Source: a virus
Lineage: Duplodnaviria; Heunggongvirae; Uroviricota; Caudoviricetes
Virus record (IMG/VR): IMGVR_UViG_3300029288_000136
DNA: 64,000 bases
Reading direction: 5' to 3' (one strand)
The notes beneath the pieces are model-generated. The model saw only the letters and a list, made by a program, of their open reading frames with translations. It was not told the origin of the DNA and searched no databases. The translations under genes were made by a program, and so were the position numbers. Below are positions 45,394 to 64,000 of this stretch, one piece after another. How positions within the stretch are numbered: the first letter of the stretch is position 1; every line of letters starts with the position of its first letter.

Positions 45394-45449
45394 GGGGGGT
45401 TGTTTTTAGATCGTGGAGTATGGTTAGTGTATAGATTGAGATATTTCTT

Positions 45450-45543: not shown

Positions 45544-45551
45544 TTACGTAT

Positions 45552-46726: not shown

Positions 46727-46729
46727 GTG

Positions 46730-47465: not shown

Positions 47466-48535
47466 GAGACAGTCATATCTACCATGTCGTAACAGCAGTA
47501 GTCGTGTTTCTTACAGGTTTTCTCCTCAGTGGATTTTTTCTTTGAGGAATTTAGTTCTGAATCCTTTGAGAAAGTCCTGAACCAGGACTCCTTTTCCTTA
47601 GCGACTTGGACTAGTTTGGCGGCTTCCTTCTTGATTGCTTTGATTATGCGGTTTGGAATTTTTCGTCCAAGATACTCATAGATAAAGATTTCCTGATCCC
47701 TGGTCTCAATGGCCTCCTTACAATAATGCTTTCTAACATAGTCGATTGGGTCTGTTTTCTTGGAGAGGTGGAGACCGCACCATATTGCTAGGACGGTTCC
47801 AGTGCGGCCGTGAGCTCCTTCACATGTGACCAATACTTTTCCAGTGGTGGTTCTCTCTTTTAAGTAGTCAATGATCACATCCATTTGTTCTTTGGTTGGG
47901 GGAGTGCGGTCCATGACATCAACGATTAATGGAGAGAAGTAGCGGGTGTCAAAGATGGGGTATTCTCTGAGGGTGTGGTTGTCAGTCATAACCCAACCTG
48001 AGAATTCCTTCAAGCGATCATAAGGTATTGTGTAGGACATCAGGCGGACTGGTTGTAGATTGAATAGCTTGGGGTGGCTGTGTTCAATGGTGTGGGAGCA
48101 AGTATCAAAGTTGTAATAAGTGTTTGAGTGGATACAAGCTGAGCCTTTGGTGTAGAGGCCGCCGCTCAATGTGGTTTGACCTCTCATCATAGCTTCCTCT
48201 TGTTCGAGCTTGTATTCTTCAAACATGTCGCGTTCTTCTTCTGATGAGGCGCATTGAGTTAGGTAGCCTTCACATGCCAAGACAATGCGCTCATAATCTT
48301 CTTCAGAGTGACATTCAAGAGCGCAATCACATCCAATGCAGTCTACAGGTGAGCCGCATATGTCAATGTCTGATATCATAGTAGAATCTACAAGTGGAAG
48401 GATACCATAATCCTTTGACTCCTTTTCGCTCACATCGTGGTCTGAGAATAAGGAGACAATGGCTTGGTTCTCATTGATGTCATCTGAGAAGTCTTCATTT
48501 GAGTTACGTCTGCTTGTGTGTTTGTTTCGTCCCAT
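47408..48535 (-). CDS. Cys-rich protein with dual-specificity/tyrosine phosphatase (CX5R) domain
   Basis: VLVTCEGAHGRTGTVLAIWCGL fits the HC-x5-R(S/T)G P-loop signature, with the TPPTKEQ region upstream. The N-terminal half is Cys-rich. Confidence 0.5.
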   Translation of the reverse strand: MGRNKHTSRRNSNEDFSDDINENQAIVSLFSDHDVSEKESKDYGILPLVDSTMISDIDICGSPVDCIGCDCALECHSEEDYERIVLACEGYLTQCASSEEERDMFEEYKLEQEEAMMRGQTTLSGGLYTKGSACIHSNTYYNFDTCSHTIEHSHPKLFNLQPVRLMSYTIPYDRLKEFSGWVMTDNHTLREYPIFDTRYFSPLIVDVMDRTPPTKEQMDVIIDYLKERTTTGKVLVTCEGAHGRTGTVLAIWCGLHLSKKTDPIDYVRKHYCKEAIETRDQEIFIYEYLGRKIPNRIIKAIKKEAAKLVQVAKEKESWFRTFSKDSELNSSKKKSTEEKTCKKHDYCCYDMVDMTVSCICGASRPMNKDELRDFT

Positions 48536-48990
48536 TTTTGAATCTTATTTAATGTATTTTAAAAAGTATGTTTAATTGGATAAGTGAGAATAAAACTCAA
48601 GAGAGTTTAAGCTCTTGAGTAAATACTGTTGTTGTTTCCGTTGTCGTGGTCGATCTATTGGCTGCCGTATCCGTAGGTTTTGTCAACTATTTCCTGAGCG
48701 TTTTCTCCCTTAGATATGTGGGTTACGGAGAGGACAGAAGGGGTTGCCTTTGATGTTCCCTGGGTGTATAGGAAGCGAACAGCTGAGTTCACTACTCCAA
48801 CACATAAGCCAACTGAGGTTACTTGTGATGCGTGGTTTCCTTGCTTCCAGGTAAAGGACTCAGGTAGCTCTCCTTTTACAGTTGTGGTCTGATCTGCAAG
48901 TTGTATGCGGACTCTTACTGCTTCTTCACTGATCGCTCTGATTCCAATTAATCCTTTGTTGTTTCTTCAGGTTCTGTTGGGGTGGTCATC

Positions 48991-49209
48991 TTAAGGTTTG
49001 TAACGCGGTTCGATTGTGGTTCCGAATCGTTTGAGTCTGCATAGGGAGTTGATTTGATTGATGCGGAATATAAGGGAACGTGCTTGTTTTACTGTCATGC
49101 CTTCGATTAACTGTCGTTCATGTTCCATGAGGCCGTCAGTGTTTACTGGTTGGTTGTCTGCTTCAAGTTCGCGTTGTCTCATCTGTTTGATTGCATCGGA
49201 GAAGGTCAT
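48991..49209 (-). CDS. hypothetical protein
   Basis: 72 aa. Confidence 0.3.
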   Translation of the reverse strand: MTFSDAIKQMRQRELEADNQPVNTDGLMEHERQLIEGMTVKQARSLIFRINQINSLCRLKRFGTTIEPRYKP

Positions 49210-49493
49210 TTTATTTTTTGTAGTCTGGAGAGCACTTGTATCTGAATAAATCTGGTTGGAATTGGGGGTTGTCTTTTTTGAAGACGAGGCAGAGAGCGTC
49301 CAGTTGTTGTTCTATGCTTCCAGTGCGGAAGGCTTTGGCTACCAGTTCGTAATCTTTGCGGCTTGTCATTTTGATTTGTTTAGTTTACGTAAGGCAAAGT
49401 ATCATCCAAGATATATTCCAAGGAAAGAGCCAAGGTATATTCCAAAGAAAAAGGCAAGTGACCATTGAATCAGTGTAATTTGTGCGATTTGAT

Positions 49494-49916
49494 TCATTTT
49501 TGTTTGTTTAATTTGATTCTATTGATTTTTTCTTCTTGTAACTCTGCAAGTATTGTTTTAAGGTAATCTACCTCTGATTGTATTAGTGATATCATATATG
49601 AGTCAGTTGGGTCTATTGTTGTTTGTAGTTTTCTTTTTCCTTCTAAAACGTATTTTGTGTGTATTTTGTCCCAAGGCGTATTTACACAATGTCCATCTCT
49701 TAAGCGTATTGGACAATATTCGCATTTAAAATTTACGAAGAATGTTAAGCATAAAGGGCATGTATCAGTGTAGATTTCAGGGGAGTATGGTTTTTTGGCA
49801 TTTGGCTTTAAGTTGTCTTTGATCCAGTGAGAGATGCTTTGCTTGGTTGCCTCGATTGCTTTGTTAAGGTCTTGGTCTGTGTGTGTTGTTGTGTATTTGG
49901 TTGTACTGATTGTCAT
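49494..49916 (-). CDS. Cys-rich hypothetical protein
   Basis: CPLCLTFFVNFKCEYCPIRLRDGHC. Confidence 0.35.
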   Translation of the reverse strand: MTISTTKYTTTHTDQDLNKAIEATKQSISHWIKDNLKPNAKKPYSPEIYTDTCPLCLTFFVNFKCEYCPIRLRDGHCVNTPWDKIHTKYVLEGKRKLQTTIDPTDSYMISLIQSEVDYLKTILAELQEEKINRIKLNKQK

Positions 49917-49926
49917 TTTTATTTGT

Positions 49927-50121
49927 TTATTTTGATTCGTTTAAGAGTGATCTTGCGTGTTGGATTATTTTGGTTGCGGATTGCTTGAGTATTCCTATTT
50001 CTTCAAAGTCAAGATATGTGGATTCTGAGACATCTTGGATTGAGTAGATTCCTTGGGAGTTTAGGGCTTTCTCAAGTTTTGGTCCGATTCCTGCTATTTC
50101 TTTTAGGTCGTATTCGTCCAT
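49927..50121 (-). CDS. helix-hairpin-helix DNA-binding mini-protein
   Basis: IAGIGPKLEKAL HhH motif. Confidence 0.4.
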   Translation of the reverse strand: MDEYDLKEIAGIGPKLEKALNSQGIYSIQDVSESTYLDFEEIGILKQSATKIIQHARSLLNESK

Positions 50122-50331
50122 TTTTGTTGTAACTTGATTTTATCTGGTTTTAAGATTAATTGTTTTTATAAAGGAATTGGCTTCGTGTTCGTAGTATATG
50201 AATTCGATTGATGATTCGATCAAGTAGTTTGATTAATTCATTCCATGTTTGTCGTAGTCGTAACAGGAGTGTCCATGTATGTCTAAATCTTGTTCATTCA
50301 TTATAGTATTTTAAGTGTTTGTGTGAATTGA

Positions 50332-50751
50332 TTAGAGGGGTTTGTATGAGCAGATGGGGTAGCGTCTGTCTGCTTTGGAGGTGTATGGTTTGAGGTTGTA
50401 GATGCGGCTTGGGGGCCTGGGTTCAAGGGGGTTGCGGTTTAGGTCTTTTTTCTTGCGTTTTAGGTAGTCTATTGCGTCTTCTTTTTGTGTTGAGTGGAAT
50501 TGTTTTAGGGTTTTGACTGTGGTGGGGGTTATGTGGAGTATTTGGTAGACTAGTTGGTTTGGGCGTAGTAGTAGGGGGAGGATTTTTAGTGAGTCGTTTA
50601 GGCCTAGGCGGTAGTAGCCGTTGAATTCGCCTTTTTTATCGTATGTTTCGATCCAGTTGGTTGAATGCTGGATTTGCGTTGTAAGTGGTTCGATTAATGG
50701 TGTGGTCATTGGTTCCTTTATTGGTTCCTGCTCTTTAATCAGTGTTTCCAT
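50332..50751 (-). CDS. hypothetical protein
   Basis: 139 aa, P/T-rich. Confidence 0.3.
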   Translation of the reverse strand: METLIKEQEPIKEPMTTPLIEPLTTQIQHSTNWIETYDKKGEFNGYYRLGLNDSLKILPLLLRPNQLVYQILHITPTTVKTLKQFHSTQKEDAIDYLKRKKKDLNRNPLEPRPPSRIYNLKPYTSKADRRYPICSYKPL

Positions 50752-50758
50752 GTTAGAT

Positions 50759-50956
50759 TTATCTTAATTTGCAGTACTCTTTGAATCTGGGTGTGTGTTT
50801 ATGAAGTAGTGAATCATATTTGGAGTATTTATCAGATAATGGGTGTTCATTGTCTCTTATTCCAACTAGGCGGTTATAGAGAGTCATGAAGTAATGTAAA
50901 CTTGCCTCACTTAAAGCATTGTCGTATTCTTTTAGTTCTTGTTCAAATGTTTCCAT
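50759..50956 (-). CDS. hypothetical protein
   Basis: 65 aa. Confidence 0.3.
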   Translation of the reverse strand: METFEQELKEYDNALSEASLHYFMTLYNRLVGIRDNEHPLSDKYSKYDSLLHKHTPRFKEYCKLR

Positions 50957-50962
50957 GTTAGA

Positions 50963-51178
50963 TTAAGGCTTTGTAATTGTTGCTCTTATGGTGTATGTTG
51001 ATTCGTCAAAGGTTCGTGTGTAGGTGTAGAGTTTCCATGTGCCTGGGAGGAAGCCAAGGCCTTTTAGGATTCTGTTGGCGGCTCCTTTGAGTGTTTTTAG
51101 ATCTCTGATGAAGATTCCGTTGTCAGAACCCAGTCCTGCTAGTTGTCCGTTTATGTGCCTTTCAGCAAAGTAGTTCAT
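50963..51178 (-). CDS. hypothetical protein
   Basis: 71 aa. Confidence 0.3.
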   Translation of the reverse strand: MNYFAERHINGQLAGLGSDNGIFIRDLKTLKGAANRILKGLGFLPGTWKLYTYTRTFDESTYTIRATITKP

Positions 51179-51542
51179 GTTAGAGGTTATTGCTTAGGAT
51201 ATATCTTGTGTATCTCATCTCATCATCTAACTGTTCATATACTGAGTTCTTGAATTGGTTGTCTTTGCTTGGGATTCTGTCTAATAGGATTGTTAAGGCA
51301 TTCATTATGGCTTCTTGATTCCTGAGTATCTGTTTGGGTGTTGGGTCCATGTTATGGTTTAGATGGTGATGAGTTTATTTGATTGATTAAATCCTTGCAG
51401 CCTTTAAGGATTGTTGACTTCTGTAGTTCTGATAGTTCTTGTGAGTCAATTGTTATTGTATTTTGTCCCTGGTATATGCAGGTTATTGTATTGTTTTTAT
51501 TTGTGTATTTGCCAAAAGTAATTGGGTCCATGTTAGAGTTTA

Positions 51543-51860
51543 TTATTGACTATTTTCTTGTAGTTTTTCAAGTATGGTGTCATCTGTGAAGGCTATCCGG
51601 GTTTTTAGGGCTTGGTCAGCTGGCGGGCCTGAGAAGATACGTTTGAAGGCGGATTCTTTAAGTACGACAAGGCGGCCTGTGTTGGGGTTTATTAGGAGGA
51701 TGCCTTCAGTTAAGTATTTGGTTTGGCATTCTTCGCATACTTGGGGTAGGGTTGAGTCTTTAGGAGGGAGTTCGTATTTAGTGTTTTTTCGTGCTATGAG
51801 GATTACTTCCCTGTGGCATATCATACAGTCTTTTACCAGTGTTGTTTCTCCAAGTTTCAT
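51543..51860 (-). CDS. zinc-ribbon protein
   Basis: CMICHREV...CEECQTKY. Confidence 0.35.
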   Translation of the reverse strand: MKLGETTLVKDCMICHREVILIARKNTKYELPPKDSTLPQVCEECQTKYLTEGILLINPNTGRLVVLKESAFKRIFSGPPADQALKTRIAFTDDTILEKLQENSQ

Positions 51861-52220
51861 TTTGTTTGGTTTATTTGTTATGTTAAGGTAATTGTGGGGA
51901 TAGTTTGGGGATAGTTGTTGGAAAGATGCGGGAAAGATTGACTCAAATTTGGGTAGGTACTCGGATTTGAGCAGGTACTCATTTTTGGGTAATTACTCAA
52001 AAGTGAGTAGGAAAAGTGTTAGAAAGTGGACTCACTTAATTCCAAGATAGGTGAGGACTTGGACATTAAGTGAGTGTAAGTGTAATAGGTATCAAGAGAA
52101 CCATATTGATGTATTTTAATATATCAATAAGGGTTTATTATTGGGTTTTTTCTTAAGTTTATTCAAATAAATTGAATAAAAGAAAAACAATAAATAAAAG
52201 AAGAATTTTTGTTCGTTTAT

Positions 52221-52742
52221 TCAAGAGAAGATTTCCTCAAAACCGGGGGAAAAGCGAAAAAGCTCTGAATGAGTTGATTTCAATAAACGAAGAGCAATTT
52301 CAGGAGAAACAAAGCCTTTATAATCGGTTTCATAGATTTCCTTAATGCGATTAATGTAAGCATGTTTTATTCCCTCTGACTCGATTTTACACTGGTTTTT
52401 CCAGTCAGGGTCGAGAGAAATGCTCTTGAATAGGTTTGATGTTGCTTTTTGGACAAGGGCTTCAAAAACTGCTCGGTCTTTTTGGAGGAGTAAAGCCATT
52501 TCAGGAGTTAAAGGAATTGTCATAGTGTTTATACCAATGCCTATGCGTATTTGTTTTTGACTTTCGATAAGTTCTTTATCGTAGGCGATTATTTGTTCAT
52601 AGGTTTTGTTGTCGTATTTTCTTTTACGGAAGTCATAGCGGCGCATATGACTTAATTTCTTTTCGTTCTCTTTCGTTCTTTCACTTGGTCCGGTCAAGAG
52701 GACTTTTCCTCTTGGATGGTTTCGTCTATCCATTGGTTTCAC
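52221..52742 (-). CDS. basic hypothetical protein
   Basis: 173 aa, K/R-rich N-terminus. Confidence 0.35.
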   Translation of the reverse strand: MKPMDRRNHPRGKVLLTGPSERTKENEKKLSHMRRYDFRKRKYDNKTYEQIIAYDKELIESQKQIRIGIGINTMTIPLTPEMALLLQKDRAVFEALVQKATSNLFKSISLDPDWKNQCKIESEGIKHAYINRIKEIYETDYKGFVSPEIALRLLKSTHSELFRFSPGFEEIFS

Positions 52743-52831
52743 CTTTTATTTTTAATTTTTTTTAATTTGTGAGAATGAATAGAAGAAGACCAAGTTCAGT
52801 TGACTTGGCTCTACAGATTCGATCAAGCCCT

Positions 52832-53245
52832 TTATTTCAGGGTTAATGCTCCCAGGACTTTTATCTGGGTTTCCGCCTGTCCACCGAGGTACTTGATACC
52901 GCTTAACCACTCGGTCGGATACTGCGTTGGATTTTCAAACGCAGCCAGAGCAGTCTTGTTCATTGCGTCTATTTGCTCCTCGGTGTAGACGATTCCCACT
53001 GCTGCTGATTGAGTCACTATTGACTTAACTTTGGCTAATGGGTCGCCTGTTTTTACGTCGCATACTCGTGCGACTTCGGTCAGCACTTTGACTGCTGCTG
53101 TCAGTTCTTCTTTGCTTATGCCGTGAAGTTCAATCTTTGTCGCAAGTGTTGCGGCTGGGATTGACTTCTTTTTCTCGTCTGTTTCTGTTGCCATTTTTCG
53201 CTCAATTAATTGAGAGGGAAATGGAGAGTTAATTATTTGGAACAA
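52832..53245 (-). CDS. hypothetical protein
   Basis: 137 aa. Confidence 0.35.
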   Translation of the reverse strand: MFQIINSPFPSQLIERKMATETDEKKKSIPAATLATKIELHGISKEELTAAVKVLTEVARVCDVKTGDPLAKVKSIVTQSAAVGIVYTEEQIDAMNKTALAAFENPTQYPTEWLSGIKYLGGQAETQIKVLGALTLK

Positions 53246-53284
53246 GTGTGAGTCGTCAATGTAGGCAGTGTGCCTCTATTGGAT

Positions 53285-53500
53285 TTATCTTCTGAGAATC
53301 AATCCGAGCAATCTGTCGGGGTCGAAGTCGGACATCTTTATCAGTTGCCTCTCGCTCATCCCTGTCATCATGGAGATTTCCTTAAGTGGGATCTTCGATG
53401 TGCTTCCATTGGCTTCCAGTACAAAGACAGGCTCCCTGCTTCTTGTTTTGATTGGCAGGTCGCTCACCCTTATCTGGATGCCCCTTGTTGTATAGGTCAT
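53285..53500 (-). CDS. HTH-like regulator candidate
   Basis: ISMMTGMSERQLIKM is an HTH-like segment. First gene of the minus block, next to the long non-coding region. Confidence 0.3.
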   Translation of the reverse strand: MTYTTRGIQIRVSDLPIKTRSREPVFVLEANGSTSKIPLKEISMMTGMSERQLIKMSDFDPDRLLGLILRR

Positions 53501-53913
53501 CCTTAAAGTCTGTTAAGTTGGATATATCTGAGAATTCCTTGGAGATTATCTTTATGAATCTTCTTATCATTCAGAATTTTCTGAATTAATTTATTCTTAT
53601 CTCCATGTCTTAGAAGTGTTATTAACACGTAGTCAGGGATGGATTCAAGATTTATTTCCATGTTCATATCAGTTCCACTATGTAGAACATTAATTGAATC
53701 AGTTTCATTTTATTTTTTTAGAATCATTGATTAAACATTTTTTGCATGTAACTGCTTTTTTTGTTCTTGAAGCATTATTTATTTCGTTAAGACTAAGCCC
53801 ACATGCTATTTTATTGTCTCCGATAATTAAGTGAATAAATTTGTTTTTCATTTTGAGTATACTTTAGGAATCAAGTCTCTTACATTGGGTACAGTCCATT
53901 TTTGAGAAGAAAA

Positions 53914-53939
53914 TGATTAACTCATTTTTGAGTTAATCA
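53914..53939. promoter_or_regulatory. perfect 11-bp inverted repeat with 4-nt spacer (operator- or terminator-like)
   Basis: TGATTAACTCA-TTTT-TGAGTTAATCA. A CATTTTTGAG direct repeat is also present. Confidence 0.4.
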
Positions 53940-53999
53940 AATTATGTGCATGTTTACTTCATACATCATCCATTCTGTGCCTGAGCATATCTGTATGTT

Positions 54000-54780
54000 G
54001 GCTATGTAAGCACAAGCATCCAAATATCTCTGAGCAAGTCGAGAGAATTCCATTGTTTAGTTCACCTTAAAACAGTTGCTTGGCGGCATAGTGATTGAAC
54101 ACACATGCCTTAACCAGCCCGTGCAGTCTTCCAATTAAGGCTTGACTGCACGCTGTGGTATTTAGAAGCAGCACCATGTTTACTCCTTTCACCATATTGG
54201 CTTATGGATGCCAACAGCTTTCCCGTTGAATGCAGAACAGCTGAATAAGTCAGCCCGATTCAAAGGTTATACTATGTGGCAGTGCTGCCCGTATGCCTGC
54301 ATTATTTAAATACTTGCCCGCTCTGCCTCCGACAGCCGACAGTCTAAACTGTAGTAGTCATGCGTCCTCCCCGTTTTTGCTATTATCTCCAATCTTCCAA
54401 GGACCGAGTAGTTACTGACTACATCACCCGGTTAGTTCCTTGACCGTCAAGGAGAGCAATTCGTAAGAGCCGACGCTCAAGAGTATAGAGCCTCAAGTTT
54501 GTTTTTTGCGCTTTGCGACACGAGAGCCAGGCTAACAGCTCCCGTTTTTTTGCTCAATCTCATACAACCTCTGAGATTGTCGCACCGCTCCCGCTATATG
54601 GGAGATTCGGAGTCACTCTTATAGGATACAGGATAACAGGTCGCTGCCCGCATTTCCTCCTATGATAACCATTAGACGATTAGGATATAAGAGCGATTAC
54701 GACCAATTTCCCAAACCAAAACCAGCACCCTGCGAATTCACAGAGCAAAAAGATTAGAAGGGGTAGTTACACTATTTTTT
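54000..54780. other. GC-richer, hairpin-rich non-coding region upstream of terL (candidate ncRNA or packaging/ori region)
   Basis: No ATG-initiated ORF of 60 aa or more in any frame, although base composition is more balanced than the flanks. Contains an 8-bp stem-loop CAATCTCA-n9-TGAGATTG at 54555-54579, among others. Confidence 0.35.
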
Positions 54781-54785
54781 CTCAG

Positions 54786-54836
54786 TCTGACCTTTGACTT
54801 TTTCTTATTCTGATCTTTGATTATTCTGACCTTTGG
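54786..54836. repeat. three iteron-like 12-bp repeats TCTGA(C/T)CTTTG(A/G)
   Basis: Copies at 54786, 54809 and 54825. Confidence 0.45.
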
Positions 54837-54945
54837 TAAAAATCGGACTCAAACATTAGAAGCATAAATACTTATACTCTCATAATTACACATTCCAAAC
54901 AATTAATCTTAACATATACTTAATCAACCAAAAATACAAACCACA

Positions 54946-55083
54946 ATGCTCACCAACATAAGAACCCAAATTAAAACAAACCCAGCAGAACCCAATCTCA
55001 TCTTTGATCCTATAACACTAATGACTCTACACTTATTATCAATAAACAAAACCAAATATTGCATCCATCAATCACAATGCTAA
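54946..55083 (+). CDS. upstream mini-ORF 1, paralogue of the terL N-terminus (45 aa)
   Basis: MLTNIRTQIKTNPAEPNLIFDPITLMTLHLLSINKTKYCIHQSQC. The stop TAA follows the next ATG within CAATGCTAA. Confidence 0.35.
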   Translation: MLTNIRTQIKTNPAEPNLIFDPITLMTLHLLSINKTKYCIHQSQC

Positions 55084-55211
55084 CAAACATAGACCTACAA
55101 ATCAAAACAAGCCTCACAACCTCAAACCACATCATTGATCCAATAACATCAAAGACCCCACACCATCTCCAAATAGATAAACCCAAATACAATTACCACC
55201 CACAATGCTAA
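55077..55211 (+). CDS. upstream mini-ORF 2, paralogue of the terL N-terminus (44 aa)
   Basis: MLTNIDLQIKTSLTTSNHIIDPITSKTPHHLQIDKPKYNYHPQC. Its first 11 residues are nearly identical to the TerL start, and its stop overlaps the terL ATG. Confidence 0.35.
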   Translation: MLTNIDLQIKTSLTTSNHIIDPITSKTPHHLQIDKPKYNYHPQC

Positions 55212-56749
55212 CCAATATCGACTTACAGATCAAGACCGGACTAACAACCTCAGACTTCATAATAAAAGGAGCCACAGACTTCAAATACTGGGCCGAAACC
55301 CTATACGACTACACAATCAAACCATACCACATCGAATGGGCCAACAACCTAACACAACAAACACGCTCCTCAACCATCGCAGCAAGAGGACTAGGCAAAT
55401 CACTCATACTAGGAACCCTAATGCCCATCTGGCTAAGCTTCTACGACTACACACCACAGACAACAAACCTAAAAGGAATAGTAATAGCAGCCCAAAACCT
55501 AAGCCAAAGCACTAAACTAATGATGAACATCCGAAACCACATCAACAAAACAGAACTAACACAACTACTCATACCAAAAACAGGAGACTACACCTGGACC
55601 AAAAAAGAAATAAACACCACAACCGACTGGAAAATAAACGTACTACCATACAGCGACAACGCAAGAGGACCACACGTCCCATACCTCCTAATGGAAGAAG
55701 CAGGTCTATTCACCGACCTAGAAATATACACAGACGTATTCCTACCAATGATCCAAAGAGCCAACGGCAACGCAATGTTATTAGGGACCCCAAAAACAGC
55801 ATACGACCTGCTAGCAAGAAGCCAAATACCCGGAAGCGGATACCAGATAAGCAAATACCCCCTAATCAAAAACGGAGAATGCATCCTACCAGAAATATTC
55901 CCCCCAGAACGAATACAACAAATACGAAAAGACATCGGAGAACTAAGCTTCGCAAGAGAATACCTACTCGAAATAGTAGGAGAAGGACGAGCAATAAAAA
56001 CACAACACATAATAGACAGCCTAGACCCAACAGAAACCTTCACCACACTAGGAACCGAAACAGGAGAATACTACATAGGAGCAGACCTAGCACTATCCCC
56101 CACAGGAGACTACACAGTACTAACAGTCATAGAACGCTACAATGGACGCTACCACATCCGCAAAATAGAAGAATACCGCGGCATGAGCTTCGACAACCAA
56201 ATAAACACCATAGCCACCCTATACAAACAATACAACCCCGTCACCCTACTAATAGACGAAAGCAACTTCGGAGGAATAGTAACCCAAAAACTACAAACAC
56301 AATACAACATACCAGCCCAAAGCATCAAATTCCTCCCAACCACCCGCAACACCATGCTCATAAGACTAATAAACACCTTCACATCAAACAAAATAACCAT
56401 ACCACGAAACCCCAACTGCCCCACCACCCTCACACTAACAGACCACCTACTAGACCAAATAAGCAGCCTACACAGCGACAAAACACGCAGCGGCCAAGAC
56501 ACCTACAAAGCATCAACAAAACACGATGATTCTTTAATGTCCCTAGCACTAGCCCTACACGCAGCAGGAGACACAGACAACTACCAAGAAACAGCCATAC
56601 TAACAGCCAAACCACCAACAAACCAAACACAACAAAACAAGATAATACAAGACAACTACTATGAAACAATACAAAAAATGAGACAAAAACCAATAAAAGA
56701 AACCAAAGAATACGGATCAGCCTTCAACAAATGGCTACCACACAACTAA
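55205..56749 (+). CDS. terL: terminase large subunit
   Basis: Deviant Walker A AARGLGKS, Walker B LLMEEAG. C-terminal nuclease-domain acidic motifs are IGADLALSP, LLIDESNFGG and KHDDSLMSLALALH. 514 aa, immediately upstream of the portal candidate. Confidence 0.8.
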   Translation: MLTNIDLQIKTGLTTSDFIIKGATDFKYWAETLYDYTIKPYHIEWANNLTQQTRSSTIAARGLGKSLILGTLMPIWLSFYDYTPQTTNLKGIVIAAQNLSQSTKLMMNIRNHINKTELTQLLIPKTGDYTWTKKEINTTTDWKINVLPYSDNARGPHVPYLLMEEAGLFTDLEIYTDVFLPMIQRANGNAMLLGTPKTAYDLLARSQIPGSGYQISKYPLIKNGECILPEIFPPERIQQIRKDIGELSFAREYLLEIVGEGRAIKTQHIIDSLDPTETFTTLGTETGEYYIGADLALSPTGDYTVLTVIERYNGRYHIRKIEEYRGMSFDNQINTIATLYKQYNPVTLLIDESNFGGIVTQKLQTQYNIPAQSIKFLPTTRNTMLIRLINTFTSNKITIPRNPNCPTTLTLTDHLLDQISSLHSDKTRSGQDTYKASTKHDDSLMSLALALHAAGDTDNYQETAILTAKPPTNQTQQNKIIQDNYYETIQKMRQKPIKETKEYGSAFNKWLPHN

Positions 56750-57474
56750 AACACCAAACTAATCAAGCCACACAATCAACTGACACAATCAACTGACACA
56801 ATCAACTGACACAACTAACAGAGACAACTAACAGAGACAAACAAACCAAAAAACCAACCAAGACAACACAAGTAAACAAAGACAACCAAACACACAACAT
56901 ACCAATATGAATAAGCAAAGACAACTAACACAACTAACAGAAACAACACAACCAAACCACGCAACTAAGCAGACAAAGATAACTAAACCAAACAACAAAC
57001 TAACACAACCAAAACAAGACAACTAAAACAAGACAACTAAACCAAGACAATTAGATCATACAATAAAACCATACAACCAAACCAAGACAGATAAACTAAA
57101 AAAACTAACTAACTCAACTGTTAAGAATCAAAACAACTAACAGAGATAACATAACCAAATCACACAATTAATCAAAATAACTAAACAACACAATTAGATC
57201 ATACAACTAAACCATACAACTAACTAACACAACAAACCAAATAAAACAAATCAAAAACAACCAAACACAAACCAATCAGAAAAATTTAATATAAATACTA
57301 CAATACATATACAACTAATATATACCATACAAAACTAATTAATAAAAAACCAAATAAACAAGCACTAAAACAAACAGATATCAAAACAAATAAATACAAA
57401 AACAAATAAAAACCAAATTAATAAAAAACAAGACTAAAAAACAACAATAACATACAATCAATAAATATTACAAG
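56750..57474. repeat. A/C-rich low-complexity spacer with tandem repeats
   Basis: Plus strand is almost entirely A and C. CACAATCAACTGA x3 (56771-56809), CAACTAACAGAGA x2, ACAAGACAACTAAA x2, and ACAATTAGATCATACAA at both 57051 and 57191. Confidence 0.6.
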
Positions 57475-58893
57475 ATGACAACACCAAATCAAAAAACAAA
57501 AACCCAAAGAAGATCACAACCAATATCAACACACACACAAAACATACAAAACACCGGATTCCAAGGAATAATACCCACACTGCAAAAATTCATGTACGGA
57601 GAACAAAAAACAGACAACACCCCCGAACCGGAAATAGGAAACAAAGGATACAGCACCGGACTAACACTAAACAGGGCAAGCAAAGCAGACCTGGAAGCAC
57701 TATACATAAGCGACCCAGTAATATTCAACGGAATAAACACCTACTACAAAACAATCCTCTCAAACCCCCCAACCCTGACAAACGGATCGGAAAAAGACCA
57801 AAAAAAACTAGACCAATTCAGCAAACAAATAAAACTACAAAGAAGCATAATACCAAGCATAACCCAACACAGCCTCATATACGGAACCGCGTGGAATGAA
57901 AAAATCTACAACAAAGCCCCCAGAGGAAACATCCTACACAAAATACTCGGAATACCCACAAGAGACCCCAAACTAATGGACTTCCTAAGACACCAAAACA
58001 CCAACTACATAAGATTCAACGAAGTAGGAGAACCGGAAGGATACTGCCAATACATAGCTGACGGAATACACTACGAAGGAACCGACACCATAATAAACGG
58101 AACAAACAGCCTAAAAGCCATACCCTTCACCCCAAACAAAATAATGTGGACCAACTACATAGCAGTAGGAGACACCTATGAAGGAATAGGCCTGGTCGAA
58201 CCAATACTAAACAGCTCACTAGACAAAAACAACGCCCAAAAAGGATTCAGCGCATACATCTACCGACTAGGACACGGACTACTAGGCATCAAAGCAGGAA
58301 ACGAAAGATTCATACCCTCAACCGACATGATACACAAAGCCATACAGATCTTCAGCAACATAAACACCGAAACAGTAGTCTCCTACCCCTACTACCTACA
58401 ACCCGAAATGATCGAACCCAAAAGAGGAATAGAACGACTAAGAGAACAAGTAGACTACTTCATAGACCAACAAATAGCCGGAATCGGTTTGCCAGCATGC
58501 TTAGTAACAGGCCAAGGAACTTCTATGAACCGCAGCATCCTGGACAAAATGATGATGCTATTCTACCAAAGCCTCACCATGATCCAAAACAACATATCTA
58601 TAAGCATAGAAGACAACCTATCCCAAGAACTAATGGACATATACGGACTAGACAACCCCCCAAGACTAGAATGGCCCGACATAAACATAGAAAGCATGGA
58701 CAGCAAAGCAAACAGGCTAAGCACATACGCAAAAGCAGGCCTGCTAGGAGCCACCCCAATGCTGCAGACATACATACGACACTCAGAACACCTACCCCAA
58801 GAAGGAGACAACACGCCCAACACGCCAGACACCCAATCAAACGAAGACCAGGAGAACCACAAATCAAAGCTGGATTCAATCCTCGACTTCTAA
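57475..58893 (+). CDS. portal protein candidate
   Basis: 472-aa ORF directly after terL in head-module order. Size and position only, no motif checked. Confidence 0.5.
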   Translation: MTTPNQKTKTQRRSQPISTHTQNIQNTGFQGIIPTLQKFMYGEQKTDNTPEPEIGNKGYSTGLTLNRASKADLEALYISDPVIFNGINTYYKTILSNPPTLTNGSEKDQKKLDQFSKQIKLQRSIIPSITQHSLIYGTAWNEKIYNKAPRGNILHKILGIPTRDPKLMDFLRHQNTNYIRFNEVGEPEGYCQYIADGIHYEGTDTIINGTNSLKAIPFTPNKIMWTNYIAVGDTYEGIGLVEPILNSSLDKNNAQKGFSAYIYRLGHGLLGIKAGNERFIPSTDMIHKAIQIFSNINTETVVSYPYYLQPEMIEPKRGIERLREQVDYFIDQQIAGIGLPACLVTGQGTSMNRSILDKMMMLFYQSLTMIQNNISISIEDNLSQELMDIYGLDNPPRLEWPDINIESMDSKANRLSTYAKAGLLGATPMLQTYIRHSEHLPQEGDNTPNTPDTQSNEDQENHKSKLDSILDF

Positions 58894-58907
58894 ACCACAT
58901 AAAAAAG

Positions 58908-61094
58908 ATGCCAAACCCCCAAACTAACACCAAACCACCACATGAAAACAATGAGAAAATAGCGGAGTTGGTTCACTCCAACTCCGAAATAGGCTCGTCA
59001 GGATCCTCACCAACATCTTCCCCCGATTCCTCCGTCTCGGAAGCATCCTCGACTACGGAACCTCGCTCAGACTCGGCTTCATATCCTTCCTCGTTACAGG
59101 GATTGGTTCACGCCAATCCCACGTTACCTACGGAGTCGGTCTCTAAGACCTCCTCGACGTTACAATTACAAGATGAATCATCTGTGAATGTTACATCAGA
59201 CGTTACATTACGAGAACAAATAGCCAATCAATCCCATACTCAATGGTCTAAATGGATGGAATATCTATTCAATGAATCAAATCAATTAGAAGATGGAACA
59301 GTAAGCATCCCACCAACTAAAGTAAGCAGATGGAAGAGACAAATAGTTACAGATTACAAAGACTTAACTATAGAAGAGCAGAATAGTGACTTAAAAGAAG
59401 CAGATATCTACATACAAATCTTTAATTCATACTTACATAATTCCAAAGAGACCTTAGATAATGCAGAGTTAGTTCAATCCAACTCTGAAATGAATGAATC
59501 AAGTGAAAAACCACTGAATAAAGAAGAAAAGAACGCTCCGACCAACTGCGAACTAATGAAGCCATTCACCCCAATGCAGATGACAAACAAACAAATGAAC
59601 ATAGAAGACATCAATTACTACTTCAACGACAAATACTCAGAGAAATACATGCTATTCAACCAAACAAACAAAGGAACACACATATTCCTACATAAAGGAA
59701 GCAGATGGAACGGTTCAACAGTAAAGATATACAACGACAACAAAGAAGAGATAACTGACAGATACCCAGACATAGTATACCAAGCACCTGAACTGACAGA
59801 TTACTCCATAATAGTGGAAGGAATAATAGAAAACAATGGAACACTAGACTCTGGAACTCTAAATGGAACACCAAAAGGAACAGTAAACTCTGGAACACAG
59901 AATGAAACACTAAATGAAACACTAAATGGAACACTACAACTATACGACATACTATACTACGACCAACCGATGAACAGATCACAGCTGATAGAAAGACTAA
60001 GAGTATTATTCATGAATATAAAAGACACTGAAAACATAAAGAAGAACAGACCAATACCTGAGAAAAACATCAAACACATGATCAAACTAGCTAAAAAGAT
60101 GGGAACAGGCATAATAAGACACCTAGACTCAGCCTACCATATCAATGAACATGGAAACGACAAAGGATTCCAACTCTCAGACACTTCTGCAGCCTCCTCC
60201 ACTAACACTGATACAATATATAATAATATACATACAATAGGCAACAACACTTCTACAATACTAAAAGAGATATCAGACAAATTACCACAAACATTCATAT
60301 CAGAATTAAGCAAAGCAAAAGACAACTGGATACCATTCACACTATCAAAGCATTACAGAGGACACAAAGAAGGAAATAATATAATAATGAATAGCGTACA
60401 CCAGGATCTAAGATTCAACATCCCCAATTCAACAAACGTACAAGCAATAACGATACTAACACCAGGAAACAATGAAAATCAGGACCTACTAACAATAGGG
60501 GAAGCAGCTAGAAATGGAAAGATAAGATTCCTGGTAAAAGAACCAGAACCAATACAAAGCACAAAACCAACATACTACCAAGAGAATAACCCAGGAGCCA
60601 CAACAGTACCTGGATTCAGCATAGTAGTAGCAGAAGGCCAATACACGCTCCTGGAATCAACAGATACCAAGCTACATATCGAATTAAACTGCATAGAGTC
60701 CTCATCCAGTGAAGGAGAGCATACAGTAAGAAAAAACAAGGAAGTCATAGATAAAGCGCTGGAAGCAGGGATCAAAGTAGACGAAATAGACTGGAGTACT
60801 TTAAAAGACATATCAGGGGTGTGGAGCCTAAGCGAAGCGCATATGACAGACACTACAATACTACTTATGAGGCTTCTAAACAGGGGAACAGCAAGATTAC
60901 TTGAAAAAGTAGACAAAACATGGATGGAACAAGTCAAAAAAGGACACATACACAAGACCGGAGTAAACAAGGAAAAACTATACAAAATAGCCCTTATGAG
61001 CGAAGAAGGATACTACAGACCAGAGATAGCCAAAGAGATAGGAACAAACAAGGACACAGTATACAGATGGCAGAAAGCATTAGGATACTACTAA
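58908..61094 (+). CDS. large head-module protein with Ser-rich linker and C-terminal HTH
   Basis: Start set at the first ATG after the portal stop, because the tracked ORF start at 58497 lies in an alternative frame of portal. GC-rich Ser/Thr/Pro linker (SSGSSPTSSPDSSVSEASSTTEP). C-terminal EIAKEIGTNKDTVYRWQKALGY is HTH-like. Confidence 0.45.
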   Translation: MPNPQTNTKPPHENNEKIAELVHSNSEIGSSGSSPTSSPDSSVSEASSTTEPRSDSASYPSSLQGLVHANPTLPTESVSKTSSTLQLQDESSVNVTSDVTLREQIANQSHTQWSKWMEYLFNESNQLEDGTVSIPPTKVSRWKRQIVTDYKDLTIEEQNSDLKEADIYIQIFNSYLHNSKETLDNAELVQSNSEMNESSEKPLNKEEKNAPTNCELMKPFTPMQMTNKQMNIEDINYYFNDKYSEKYMLFNQTNKGTHIFLHKGSRWNGSTVKIYNDNKEEITDRYPDIVYQAPELTDYSIIVEGIIENNGTLDSGTLNGTPKGTVNSGTQNETLNETLNGTLQLYDILYYDQPMNRSQLIERLRVLFMNIKDTENIKKNRPIPEKNIKHMIKLAKKMGTGIIRHLDSAYHINEHGNDKGFQLSDTSAASSTNTDTIYNNIHTIGNNTSTILKEISDKLPQTFISELSKAKDNWIPFTLSKHYRGHKEGNNIIMNSVHQDLRFNIPNSTNVQAITILTPGNNENQDLLTIGEAARNGKIRFLVKEPEPIQSTKPTYYQENNPGATTVPGFSIVVAEGQYTLLESTDTKLHIELNCIESSSSEGEHTVRKNKEVIDKALEAGIKVDEIDWSTLKDISGVWSLSEAHMTDTTILLMRLLNRGTARLLEKVDKTWMEQVKKGHIHKTGVNKEKLYKIALMSEEGYYRPEIAKEIGTNKDTVYRWQKALGYY

Positions 61095-61372
61095 AAGTTG
61101 TCACTAATCTAAGTGAGAAAAATAGAGACAAAAAACCAGATAAACAACACACAACAAACCAAACACAATAAATTACAAACACAATACATTATAAACACAA
61201 CATATCCCAAACACAATACATTGAGAACACAATATATTAATATGGTTATAATAAATGATGTATTGATTTCTAATATACAATTCCAAATATACAACACCAT
61301 ATCAAATATACTCAATAAATATAAGCAAAAATATAAGTAAATAATCAGATTAAGAATACAAACAAGAAAAGA

Positions 61373-62524
61373 ATGCCAATACCCTCTGAGATACTCAAAA
61401 CAGAAGAAGACATACAAGAAATAAGAGTACAAGACATGATACTCCCATACAAGCTAAAAGACAGAATACTCTTCAGCCCAGGAGTACACAACCAATCAAT
61501 ATACACAGGAGACGTAATAGTTGACTCCTTCTACAACACCCAATGGAATGACAGAACCCTATCAATATACCTGGACCACAAAGACGAATTCACAACAGAC
61601 CCAGACACCGGCAGAAAGACAAAACATGTAGGAGCAGAAGTATCAGACTACGCAGGATACGTCAAAAACCTAAGATGCGACAAAGGACACATAAAAGGAG
61701 ACCTACACTTCACAGACCTAAACACCGCACTAAAAGTAAAACTAGGAGCACACTTCGGAATAAGCCCCAGAGGAGACAGCTACATGATAGGAAACAAAGT
61801 AAAAAAGATGCTAATAGAAAACTGGAGCATAGTAGTAAACCCAGCTATCAAGACAACATACCTAAACTTCGCGATGTGTGAAAAAACAGAAGAAGAAATA
61901 TTCACACAAAAAATAGAAGAAAACAACGACAAAGAAAACACAATAAAAAACAAATCAAAAGAACCAAGACCAATAACAGATCAAAAAATACAAATAGACG
62001 GATCAATAAAAAAACAAGAGGAAAAAACAATGACAGACGAAACTGTAAACAAAGAAGGAAACGAAAACACAAGCAAAAACGAAGCAGACAAAATAATCAC
62101 ACTAGGAGAAAAAGTAAACAAACTAGAGACAACCATGACCAAAGTAGCCAACATGATGGAAGAAGAACTAGCCTGTAAAAAGAAAAAACTAGAAGAAGAA
62201 ACAAAAGAAAAACAAACAATACAAGCACAAAAAGAAGAAGAGAATAGGAAAATACAAGAAATAGAAGCCAAAAAACAAGAAACAAAAGAAAAAGAAATGG
62301 CCGAAAAACAACTAAAAGAAGAAATAGAGACAGCAAAGATGAAAGAAATAGAAGAACTAAAAACACAAATAAAACTACTAAGAGAAGCAATAGACAAACC
62401 TGAAATAGAATCGATCAAAGACAAAGGAATAAGAGGAGCACCCTTTATAGAATCAGATACGATGAGCCTAGGAGACATGGACGAAGGAATGCTCGAATAC
62501 CTAAAAAAAGAAATAGTAATATAA
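61373..62524 (+). CDS. scaffolding-like protein (N-terminal globular part plus long E/K-rich coiled coil)
   Basis: The C-terminal 200 aa are an extremely charged helical KEEE-type repeat. Position between portal and capsid. Confidence 0.45.
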   Translation: MPIPSEILKTEEDIQEIRVQDMILPYKLKDRILFSPGVHNQSIYTGDVIVDSFYNTQWNDRTLSIYLDHKDEFTTDPDTGRKTKHVGAEVSDYAGYVKNLRCDKGHIKGDLHFTDLNTALKVKLGAHFGISPRGDSYMIGNKVKKMLIENWSIVVNPAIKTTYLNFAMCEKTEEEIFTQKIEENNDKENTIKNKSKEPRPITDQKIQIDGSIKKQEEKTMTDETVNKEGNENTSKNEADKIITLGEKVNKLETTMTKVANMMEEELACKKKKLEEETKEKQTIQAQKEEENRKIQEIEAKKQETKEKEMAEKQLKEEIETAKMKEIEELKTQIKLLREAIDKPEIESIKDKGIRGAPFIESDTMSLGDMDEGMLEYLKKEIVI

Positions 62525-62582
62525 GAACAAAACACCAAGAATAAAAACAAAAAAAAACAATAAACAAAAAAAAAGAGAAAAG

Positions 62583-62624
<42 letters not shown>

Positions 62625-62673
62625 TAAGAATAAAAAAAATAAATAAAAACAAACAGGTAAAAAAAAAAACAAG

Positions 62674-63876
62674 ATGGCAAACAACGCACCCGGAGAAGGA
62701 AGAAGCATATTTGAACTGGACCTAAAACCAGCCAAACACGCCCTAGGAGGAACATGGAAAACATTTGAACTAGCATCAGCGGTAACCCAACAATCAACAA
62801 CTAGAGGAACCGCCCTATCAACCAAATACATGCTCCTACCAGTAGCATGGGCAAAGGCTGCAATGGACGCAGCCAAAGAAAACATGAGATTCGTGGAAAC
62901 ATGCAAACAAGAACTCATGAAAGAAGGACAAAGCACCTATGTAATACCCAAAAGGACTAAATACATGGCTGACGGAGACTGGGAAGCCTCAGCGGAAGAA
63001 TACACCACAGCAAACACAGAGATGCTATGGACCGACATAACCACCCCTGACGGAGTAGAGTTCACCCCGACAGAATACAACTATGGAGTGGCCATAACAG
63101 ACAAAAACGTGAGAACCAACGCATTAAACATAGTACAATTCTGCAGAGAAGAACTACAATACAAACTGGAAAACCACCAAGACAACCTCGTAAGAAACGC
63201 CCTACTAGGAGTATCCAACTCAGTAGAAGCAACAGTGACCACGGCAGCGGGACCGGTAGCTATGAGCAACTCAGTAAACGGGGCAACCAACCTAATGGGA
63301 GGAGACGCTACAATGGCAGACCTATCCCTGGTAGACGGAGACATCCTAACAACCGAGCTGATGAAGAAAGCAGTAAGACACATGACCTCAGACAAAGGAT
63401 ACTACTGGAGTAATACGACCACACACACACCATCAGCGGTGACAAAGAACGCATGGGAACCAACAGCGTCAGAACCCCTGGTATGGTATATAGCGCCTGA
63501 GAACCGAACCCAACTACAAGACGACTCCCAGTTCATGAGCGCAGCCGAATACGGAAGCGACAAAGTACTGCTAAAAGGAGAAATAGGGGAATTCATAGGA
63601 ACCAAGATCATATGCACCACAAAGGTTACCAAATTCGTAGCAAACGACTACATATGGATGGATGGAACCATAAACCCCACCGTAAACTGCTCAGGAAGAC
63701 AAGTATCACTGCAGAAATCAGGAAAAGCGATGGGTCTAGTATACGGAGCCAAACCAACAATAGAAGTGTTCAGAGAACCATCCTACAGACAAGTAAGGAT
63801 GTGCCTGAACATGGCAGCACAAGCCAAACCCATCTACGACGACGCAATAGTAAAGATATGCGTGTCAGATGTGTAA
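62674..63876 (+). CDS. major capsid protein candidate (HK97-fold expected)
   Basis: 400-aa ORF after the scaffold-like gene in canonical order. Followed by a T14 run. No motif verified. Confidence 0.45.
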   Translation: MANNAPGEGRSIFELDLKPAKHALGGTWKTFELASAVTQQSTTRGTALSTKYMLLPVAWAKAAMDAAKENMRFVETCKQELMKEGQSTYVIPKRTKYMADGDWEASAEEYTTANTEMLWTDITTPDGVEFTPTEYNYGVAITDKNVRTNALNIVQFCREELQYKLENHQDNLVRNALLGVSNSVEATVTTAAGPVAMSNSVNGATNLMGGDATMADLSLVDGDILTTELMKKAVRHMTSDKGYYWSNTTTHTPSAVTKNAWEPTASEPLVWYIAPENRTQLQDDSQFMSAAEYGSDKVLLKGEIGEFIGTKIICTTKVTKFVANDYIWMDGTINPTVNCSGRQVSLQKSGKAMGLVYGAKPTIEVFREPSYRQVRMCLNMAAQAKPIYDDAIVKICVSDV

Positions 63877-63902
63877 AAAACGCAGACAAAACAACCAATC
63901 TA

Positions 63903-63916
63903 TTTTTTTTTTTTTT
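63903..63916 (+). terminator. T14 run downstream of capsid gene (oligo-T terminator candidate)
   Basis: 14 consecutive T, 27 nt after the stop codon. Confidence 0.4.
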
Positions 63917-64000
63917 ATTATATAATTGATGAATAGCGGCAAAAACAAGAGAGAAAAAGCCGACAAACATACGATAACCAATAAAACAAACTAAAAAACG

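Follow-up and report, generated by a model that had tools for sequence, protein, structure and literature searches.

The 64-kb stretch of DNA analysed here (the window) carries phage genes throughout. Its terL protein (positions 55205–56749) is identical to NCBI WC444_06135, which is encoded on an 84.9-kb contig; the metagenome-assembled genome that includes this contig carries the label Candidatus Paceibacterota. The window corresponds to positions ~3,680–67,679 of that contig. As an indication of the host, Paceibacterota is a label only, obtained by binning. The source is a tailed phage of ~85 kb, and the spacer considered below lies inside its rightward packaging and head operon. Genes for tail-type proteins occupy 0–6.6 kb on the plus strand and are followed by a leftward arm (~7–54 kb, minus strand), which encodes a PD-(D/E)XK nuclease, an AAA/VWA pair, a phosphatase and other proteins, and, from ~54.9 kb, by the rightward packaging and head module on the plus strand, which includes the genes for TerL, a Mu-type portal, a 728-aa protein, a protease-like protein and the major capsid protein. 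Searches across the 64-kb window for tRNAs and Rfam families returned none.

The large terminase gene, terL (55205–56749, plus strand, 514 aa), was assigned through Pfam Terminase_6C (5e-11) and PHROG 38 (1.6e-25), and the portal gene (57475–58893, plus strand, 472 aa) through Pfam Portal_Mu and a portal match in PHROGs. Between them lies an A/C-rich tract of 725 nt made of repeats (56750–57474, plus strand), which the initial annotation had described as a non-coding spacer between terL and portal; both gene calls and their coordinates proved right (Pfam, PHROGs), and plus-strand ORFs within the spacer do not exceed 39 aa. On the upstream side, TerL extends past its conserved nuclease domain into a lineage-specific, low-complexity C-terminal tail (56576–56749, plus strand). 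The alignments of relatives' TerL stop at approximately residue 454–457, and the tail contains an internal 75-nt duplication (56575–56593 and 56650–56668, DNYQET/DNYYET). The 3′ end of the gene reads ...CAC AAC TAA, with the stop codon sitting in the first copy of the spacer core motif, ACAACTAA. TerL of a relative with 81% identity is shorter by 4 codons at its C-terminus; thus, terL here now terminates within the first repeat unit. On the downstream side, portal codons 1–33/39 (57475–57591) form a T/N/Q/K-rich extension that is missing from every relative in the N-terminal alignment, and an in-frame ATG at 57592 represents an alternative portal start, so that the boundaries of the low-complexity tract are soft. 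Upstream of terL lies an ORF-poor region without a recognisable terS, and comparison with the upstream regions of the relatives detected no similarity.

The spacer is non-coding. Its three plus-strand frames contain 18, 12 and 20 stop codons, respectively. Of these 50, 44 are TAA, the codon that likewise ends terL, portal and the next three late genes (five of five checked). There is a single ATG in 725 nt, compared with 2.7 expected from composition, and no GTG or TTG triplets occur on the plus strand. The sole ATG-initiated ORF (56907–57026, plus strand, 39 aa) encodes a T/N/Q/K-rich product without a homologue and was judged spurious; neither this ORF nor the concatenated three-frame translation of the spacer matched any of 5.8 billion proteins at E ≤ 1. 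Triplet periodicity, like homologues, is lacking: the dominant period is 13 nt, which is not a multiple of three, so that any reading frame is broken by the repeats. A gene concealed by an alternative genetic code or start codon, the finding that the initial annotation had named as the one to overturn its interpretation, was thus looked for with a negative outcome (stop codons, use of TAA, homologues). Minus-strand ORFs of 40–64 aa with TTG starts encode Cys/Val/Leu/Phe-rich products and were dismissed as compositional and without support, since stop codons are rare on the G/T-rich minus strand because A is rare there.

At the RNA level, no Rfam match to the spacer was obtained up to E = 1. 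The initial annotation had listed an unstructured RNA leader among the possible functions of the spacer, and the sense RNA is indeed predicted to be essentially unstructured, with a minimum free energy (MFE) of −9.6 kcal/mol over 725 nt, but this does not set it apart from composition-matched shuffles (z = −0.8). The antisense RNA is equally unremarkable (z = +0.4 vs shuffles). A structured non-coding RNA was therefore rejected, in view of the missing Rfam match and the lack of excess stability on either strand. Inverted repeats were not found in the spacer, and scans of its plus strand identified neither sigma-70 promoters nor intrinsic terminators.

Repeats of the spacer and its surroundings

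All repeats listed in the initial annotation are present: CACAATCAACTGA occurs three times in tandem (56771, 56784 and 56797), CAACTAACAGAGA as a tandem pair (56812 and 56825) with a further, third copy at 57134, ACAAGACAACTAAA twice (57014 and 57028) and the 17-mer ACAATTAGATCATACAA twice, at 57047 and 57190, with a spacing of 143 nt. Tandem Repeats Finder (TRF), one of the checks suggested there, detected arrays on the plus strand, including two with 100% matches. These two perfect arrays are built of 13-nt units, namely, 3.5 copies of ACACAATCAACTG at 56770–56814 and 2.3 copies of ACAACTAACAGAG at 56811–56840. Further downstream, TRF recovered a degenerate array with a 58-nt period and 2.4 copies (56916–57050), as well as another with a 14-nt period, 9.8 copies and the consensus AAGACAACTAAACC (56976–57108). 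Positions 57130–57265 (plus strand) constitute an older segmental copy of 56927–57110, which holds the second ACAATTAGATCATACAA (families D3, 74%; D6, 78%; D10 and D11).

The repetitiveness of the spacer exceeds that of shuffled sequence by all measures applied. The longest exact repeat spans 32 nt, compared with at most 18 nt in 200 dinucleotide shuffles, and 120 10-mers recur, compared with a mean of 25 and a maximum of 51 in dinucleotide shuffles. The autocorrelation at lag 13 reaches z = 6.8, with harmonics at 26, 39 and 52, and 9-mers recurring within the spacer cover 74% of it. The hexamer AACTAA is found 20 times, against 2.6–3.7 expected, and the longer motif ACAACTAA 10 times; the latter is also identical to the final 8 nt of terL, stop codon included. 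Furthermore, the terL tail resembles positions 56985–57085 of the spacer, with a local alignment score of 66 vs 39 ± 6 (maximum, 57) for mononucleotide shuffles, which are a lenient null. That the repeats share their core with the upstream stop codon is a hint that duplication started at this point.

A comparable pattern was found in a related locus, L001, with 42% TerL identity, where a G-free stretch directly follows terL and repeats the stop context of that gene, TTCTAA; beyond these repeats lies a 14/28-nt tandem array, and AACTGA is common to the L001 gap and the 13-mer of the window. Given that L001 repeats a different motif, its own stop context, and displays the same local behaviour, a duplication process rather than a shared binding site is indicated. 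Within the window, two decayed tandem copies of the terL start region, ~130 nt each (54946–55204, plus strand), precede terL; these start with MLTNI... and have become richer in A and C, which shows that the process of duplication and decay is the same at both ends of the gene. Tandem repeats are dense from 54.7 to 64 kb, and the first 54.7 kb hold just five arrays scoring ≥60. Among the late genes, one is preceded by five copies of a 16-mer, CACAATACATT (61160–61239), and the capsid gene by a poly(A)-like tract of ~130 nt. A motif common to the spacer and the 16-mer array was sought and found not to be enriched.

The same phage is represented by another assembly (ENA ERZ27247363, locus L004), which could be aligned with the window over 18.8 kb without a single substitution; the only differences are two indels, both of them at repeats: one 13-mer copy (56770–56782) is missing from the spacer and one 47-nt unit is missing from the poly(A)-like tract before the capsid gene. 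This difference represents either population heterogeneity or assembly ambiguity exactly at repeats; both assemblies perhaps stem from the same reads, in which case the 13-nt difference could be assembly ambiguity rather than polymorphism. The spacer thus displays the two hallmarks of variable-number tandem repeats (VNTRs), that is, head-to-tail copies above chance (TRF, shuffles) and copy-number variation by a whole unit, the latter resting on the one 13-mer absent from an assembly that may share its reads.

The terL–portal gap in related phages

The order of terL and portal is retained in 16 further loci. The gap between the two genes measures 39–77 nt in six lineages and 193–352 nt in seven, five of which (L001, L003, L009, L014 and L016) carry a small hydrophobic ORF of ~49–96 aa; the ORFs of L001, L003 and L009 are homologous to one another (56–59 aa, GNDRG motif). 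In L017, the gap has expanded to 1,934 nt and accommodates three inserted genes. The gap size of the window is, as initially proposed, atypical, given that 15 of the 16 related loci have 39–352 nt at this position. By contrast, conservation in related viruses, another of the suggested checks, returned nothing: the spacer DNA has no similarity to any of the 21 related loci compared. Cultured phages, the TerL of which is just ~24% identical, likewise yielded no DNA match to the spacer, and single-protein scans of IMG/VR, JGI metagenomes and GTDB genomes produced no hits. A search by TerL alignment recovered 14 IMG/VR loci, each with at most 44% TerL identity and none with a similar tract.

The closest relative is P0002 (ENA ERZ1426824), with 81% identity in TerL, the gene calls of which imply a gap of ~790 nt with an ORF of 108 aa; the frame translations of the spacer did not retrieve this ORF at E ≤ 1. 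Since this relative also appears to have a gap of ~790 nt, a long gap would have persisted for some time. Nevertheless, judging from the short gaps of the relatives and the lack of DNA similarity, the long gap does not appear to be ancestral.

Base composition of the late operon

The spacer consists of A, C, T and G at 0.588, 0.233, 0.131 and 0.048, respectively (82% A+C), and forms the A+C maximum of the window, atop a plateau of ~70% A+C that extends from 54.8 kb to the window end. The initial description of its plus strand as almost only A and C captures the A/C-richness but is overstated: T is no lower than in terL and in portal (0.131 vs 0.135), and only G is further depleted (0.048 vs 0.14–0.16). 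The distal part of the spacer (57290–57474, plus strand), which reaches the portal ATG, is AT-rich, with A 0.63, T 0.18, C 0.16 and G 0.02.

The flanking genes avoid G and T to a greater extent where they are free to do so. Third codon positions of terL contain A 0.54, C 0.40, G 0.05 and T 0.02 (94% A+C), and four-fold degenerate sites contain A 0.66, C 0.32, G 0.01 and T 0.01 (98% A+C); the corresponding values for four-fold sites of portal are 0.59, 0.30, 0.08 and 0.03 (89% A+C). The codons ATT, CTT, GTT, TTT and CAT are not used at all in the two genes, which employ ATT for none of 100 Ile codons and AAG for 3 of 60 Lys codons, compared with 44 of 188 and 94 of 186, respectively, in six leftward genes of the same phage. 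As the silent sites of terL and portal are more G/T-free than the spacer itself, the asymmetry belongs to the late operon; being the background of the operon, it provides no evidence for a special function of the spacer. The initial inference from strict strand asymmetry to a function of the spacer as single-stranded nucleic acid could not be upheld for this reason, and also because the asymmetry follows the sense strand of a block of minus-strand genes. Conversely, T amounts to 13% of the spacer and to 1–3% at the silent sites, so that the spacer is not simply at the compositional equilibrium of silent sites, which counts against the explanation favoured below. A more general lesson is that the strand asymmetry of intergenic DNA should be compared with that of neighbouring silent sites before it is called a signal.

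On either arm of the genome, the bias tracks the sense strand, albeit patchily. At 49.5–51.9 kb, the sense strand of a block of leftward genes is biased in the same way (69–88% A+C at third positions), and the genes between this block and the divergent junction are without it. Evolution of the protein has proceeded in the same direction: replacements relative to TerL of P0002 are directional, with S→T 8:0, S→N 4:0, V→I 3:0, I→T 3:0, L→Q 3:0 and F→Y 3:0, and several of them, for instance, L→Q, F→Y and S→T, need transversions. Third codon positions of 13 related terL genes range from G+T-rich (L003 and L009) to 62–75% A+C (L001, L011 and L018), and terL of the window is the extreme A+C case.

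With standard replication and transcription skews, it is the leading or coding strand that becomes enriched in G and T, and ATA and CTA are not the usual optimal codons; textbook skews and ordinary adaptation to host tRNAs do not explain the exclusion of G and T. Searches of the literature for phages with an A/C-rich sense strand retrieved nothing relevant. In mitochondria, the A/C bias at third positions is roughly 75–80%. The A/C-rich sense strand of the late operon, with its strongly A/C-biased third positions, is reminiscent of the L strand of vertebrate mitochondrial DNA (PMC1794132), but the bias of the phage is more extreme (98%), is linked to the sense strand on both arms, is patchy and includes transversions. 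A simple deamination gradient linked to replication does not fit, because the bias follows the sense strand and includes transversions, and mitochondrion-like strand-asymmetric deamination, which is confined to transitions and tied to the replication strand, was accordingly rejected. The near-absence of G and T from third positions in part of a genome in which other genes use ordinary codons makes the context of the spacer weightier than the spacer, and it is this operon-wide exclusion, rather than the spacer, that deserves follow-up. Should it reflect selection for structure-free mRNA in a host that dispenses with Shine-Dalgarno (SD) motifs, it would amount to a natural experiment on the limits of mRNA composition.

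Origin and possible roles of the spacer

Taken together, these observations incline us towards viewing the spacer as a near-neutral intercistronic tract built by slippage, the distal end of which serves as the portal leader. The tract would have grown by replication slippage and unequal recombination, with a 13–14-nt unit carrying the AACTAA core, the context of the terL stop codon, being duplicated repeatedly; larger blocks (26, 58 and ~143–224 nt) would then have been duplicated and later decayed, and the youngest arrays would be those that have remained perfect and vary in copy number from one assembly to the other. The A/C-richness would be a local manifestation of a drive by which the sense strand of the whole late operon loses G and T. 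The spacer is presumably co-transcribed with terL and portal, and its RNA would stay single-stranded, A and C being unable to pair. At most, it would provide a leader free of structure, start codons and SD motifs, from which ribosomes may initiate at the portal AUG. The spacer length and the repeated motif are probably outside selection, and most of the 725 nt show no feature that would call for a function. If so, the phage tolerates, and keeps remodelling, three-quarters of a kilobase of apparently unselected DNA between core packaging genes.

Variable-number tandem repeats, akin to mini- and microsatellites, occur in the intergenic DNA of phages and bacteria, and the spacer is a fresh example of this known kind, a non-coding stretch expanded by variable tandem repeats, although its location is unusual and the composition of its surroundings very much so. 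It shares with VNTRs the head-to-tail copies, the coexistence of perfect young and decayed old arrays, a unit that is not a multiple of three, the one-unit indel between assemblies and the concentration of repeats in low-complexity sequence. Unlike typical VNTRs, it is, at 725 nt, unusually long for a phage operon, contains duplications nested up to a scale of ~220 nt and separates two essential, normally adjacent genes.

The distal part of the spacer (57290–57474) is the proposed translation-initiation leader and possibly also contains a promoter. It is 80% A+T, lacks AUG and SD motifs, has an A at −3 and has a predicted MFE of 0 kcal/mol in 150-nt windows. The sequence immediately upstream of portal reads ...aatattacaagATG, without an SD motif and with A at −3, and approximately 26 of 28 gene starts of the phage lack an SD motif and have A-rich upstream regions. 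Sense RNA from 56–58 kb has a predicted folding energy of −7 kcal/mol per 150 nt, compared with −24 for the window overall. In Bacteroidia, which initiate without SD motifs, low structure, A at −3 and few upstream AUGs are the determinants of initiation (PMC6847099). The portal start, which lacks an SD motif and combines A at −3 with little predicted local structure, has the sequence features of such an SD-independent, A-rich initiation region, as do most genes of the phage, but the regions described in Bacteroidia (PMC6847099) span tens of nucleotides as opposed to 725, and the contig is labelled Paceibacterota. That a leader needs tens of nucleotides out of 725 counts against the favoured explanation in its part concerning a leader role.

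The main alternative with a concrete mechanism, albeit one that we consider unlikely, is Rho loading, whereby the ribosome-free, C-rich, G-poor and unstructured RNA would act as a rut-like attenuator, recruiting host Rho between terL and portal; this might result in polarity between terL and the head genes, or downstream genes might be expressed only with the help of a promoter or antiterminator located in the AT-rich distal part. Rut sites are defined as stretches of RNA, 78 nt or longer, that are neither translated nor structured and in which C exceeds G and is spaced at ~11–13 nt (PMC6407284), and the spacer displays all these sequence features: C/G is 4.8 overall and at least 2.4 in every 78-nt window, the RNA is unstructured (MFE ~0), there is no ORF and the 13-nt period falls within the 11–13-nt spacing of C residues (PMC6407284). 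However, the whole operon has this composition, so that the features arise trivially and carry little information, and the spacer is nearly ten times as long as rut sites (PMC6407284), which it otherwise resembles in being C>G, G-poor, unstructured, untranslated and periodic at ~11–13 nt. Attenuation would also be counter-intuitive at this point, considering that portal is normally needed in greater amounts than TerL.

A broader version, to which we likewise assign only a small chance, holds that the sense strand of the late operon is actively purged of G and U, yielding ~10 kb of barely pairing mRNA, with amino-acid replacements going in the same direction. The spacer would then be the functional extreme of this trend, a ribosome-free C>G platform of ~0.7–0.85 kb with 13-nt periodicity that loads either Rho or S1 and ribosomes and thereby sets the output of portal and head proteins relative to that of terminase.

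A protein-binding array on DNA, with AACTAA or the 13-mers as the unit, appears slightly less plausible still; it could be a pac or cos site recognized by the small terminase, an iteron-type origin or an operator of a late regulator. The spacer adjoins terL, no terS is recognisable upstream of that gene, and the many direct repeats with a conserved 6–8-nt core and variable flanks, followed by a stretch of 80% A+T, are what such an array might look like; survival of AACTAA in 20 diverged copies could also reflect selection for a binding site, and the L001 gap, too, has a 14/28-nt tandem array and shares AACTGA with the 13-mer of the window. Nevertheless, six related lineages manage with just 39–77 nt, the sequence is present in no relative, the core motif is the terL stop context of each phage rather than a shared motif, and copy number differs between the assemblies. 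Moreover, the repeats are contiguous with a 13-nt period and show no helical phasing (no signal at 10–11 or 21 nt), inverted repeats and DnaA boxes are lacking, and the skews change sign outside the spacer, at the divergent junction at ~54.8 kb, which has T-rich direct repeats of its own. On these grounds, the initial proposal of a cis element for packaging or replication finds no backing.

Iteron-type origins are characterized by helically phased repeats of ~17–22 bp, DnaA boxes and an initiator gene next to the repeats. The spacer does not fit this pattern, given the contiguous 13-nt units, the neighbouring terL and portal, the location of the skew switch elsewhere and the lack of DnaA boxes within 9 kb of the spacer. 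Nor is an element retained at the homologous position in related phages, as would be expected of a pac or cos site, considering the 39–77-nt gaps of six lineages and the 21 loci without similarity. Common to the spacer and to iteron origins or pac and cos sites are the clustered direct repeats beside an AT-rich stretch, near the terminase gene; unlike these sites, it lacks helical phasing, an adjacent initiator or recognisable terS and conservation, and its copy number is unstable.

Even less probable, in our view, is a functional non-coding RNA, in which an A-rich (ARN)n or CA-rich sponge or platform would bind S1 or an Hfq-like protein and redirect host translation late in infection. The transcript would be long, single-stranded and full of AAN/ACA repeats, and other late genes are also preceded by long A-rich tracts (the 16-mer array at 61160–61239 and the poly(A)-like tract before the capsid gene). 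However, no promoter or terminator delimits such an RNA, which belongs to no Rfam family, is not conserved and does not differ in composition from its background; the proposal is made by resemblance only.

Finally, it is highly improbable that the spacer is a gene remnant, be it of the membrane-protein gene of the relatives or of an insert erased by the compositional drive, or a cryptic gene with an unusual code, inasmuch as tblastn of the small proteins of the relatives against the spacer produced noise (best E 0.04–0.3, mostly on the wrong strand), homologues are lacking for every frame, the 13-nt repeats disrupt any reading frame and an open frame needs reassignment of TAA, which yet ends terL, portal and three more late genes; what speaks for it are the hydrophobic gap ORFs of L001, L003, L009, L014 and L016, the three genes inserted in L017 and the 108-aa ORF called in the gap of the 81% relative.

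Codon bias along the two gene arms and an island with elevated G+C

Across the terL (large terminase) and portal genes (55205-58893), third codon positions are nearly devoid of G and T, and the effect continues in weaker form as far as position 64000. A or C occupies 98% of the four-fold sites in terL; in terL and portal together, the codons ATT, CTT, GTT, TTT and CAT are never used, and AAG accounts for 3 of the 60 lysine codons. Near-exclusion of G and T at third positions recurs in the minus-strand genes at 49494-51860, and codon usage in the other genes of the phage is ordinary. Thus, the bias is patchy and follows the sense strand on both the leftward and the rightward arm. It is also the force behind the directional amino acid replacements that distinguish the terminase from its 81% identical relative.

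Positions 34000-39000 form an island with elevated G+C (0.45-0.50) that includes a minus-strand gene for a Band7/flotillin-like protein (35834-37210). The third positions of this gene are G-rich (0.37), in contrast to the remainder of the phage, and the island looks like a recent acquisition.

The junction of the leftward and rightward arms

The two arms diverge at three T-rich direct repeats with the core TCTGAYCTTTG (54776-54835), and it is exactly there that both the AT and the GC skew switch sign. A regulatory or origin role is more plausible for these repeats than for the repeat-built, non-coding tract between terL and portal (56750-57474). The ORF-poor stretch of ~0.9 kb that also lies between the arms (53850-54760) contains no convincing ORFs, has a higher G+C content (0.43-0.49) without skew and, on either strand, folds somewhat better than shuffled sequences (z = -2.3 and -2.7). 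The stretch yielded no credible Rfam match and is not similar to the ORF-poor regions of ~0.8-1 kb found upstream of terL in two of the related loci, L001 and L003.

Duplications in terL and the start of the portal gene

Directly upstream of the real terL start lie two decayed tandem copies of the terL start region, of ~130 nt each (54946-55204). Each still opens an ORF of 44-45 codons beginning MLTNI, which stops at the TAA within the ATGCTAA of the next copy; no terS-like gene was found in this interval. At the other end of the gene, the lineage-specific C-terminal tail carries an in-frame tandem duplication of 75 nt (56575-56668), with copies including AGACAACTACCAAGAAACA, which encodes DNYQET, and AGACAACTACTATGAAACA, which encodes DNYYET. 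The terL of L003 (6403-9018; 871 aa) contains an intein, which bears a LAGLIDADG endonuclease domain.

The portal ORF opens with a T/N/Q/K-rich extension of 33-39 codons (57475-57591) that is found in no relative. An alternative start is present in frame at 57592, so that the untranslated tract might reach up to 842 nt. In three related loci, the interval between terL and portal holds homologous genes for small hydrophobic proteins of 56-59 aa (L001, 11380-11550; L003, 9061-9240; L009, 1975-2154), which share a GNDRG motif flanked by two hydrophobic segments; this gene is missing from the present phage. Hydrophobic ORFs also lie immediately upstream of portal in L014, L016 and L017.

The head module and translation starts

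Downstream of portal, the gene for a 728-aa protein (58908-61094; 865 aa in a longer version of the ORF, 58497-61094) combines a weak match, at residues 404-533 of the 865-aa ORF, to the adenylation domain of ATP-dependent DNA ligases with a C-terminal HTH_23/Terminase_5-like helix-turn-helix, an unusual pairing at such a place in a head module. The 278-nt gap before the gene for a 383-aa protease-like protein contains five 16-nt units repeated in tandem (61160-61239; consensus CAAACACAATACATTA), a motif not enriched elsewhere within the window. The intergenic region that precedes the major capsid gene (start at 62674) is 82% A and comprises, directly before this start, a poly(A)-like tract of ~130 nt (62543-62669), from which the second assembly of the same phage lacks one 47-nt unit (62566-62612).

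A Shine-Dalgarno motif is absent from ~26 of the 28 gene starts called at 45205-64000, where upstream regions are A-rich and frequently end in AAG ATG or AAC ATG. Such starts are typical of Bacteroidia-type initiation, whereas the contig is labelled Paceibacterota.
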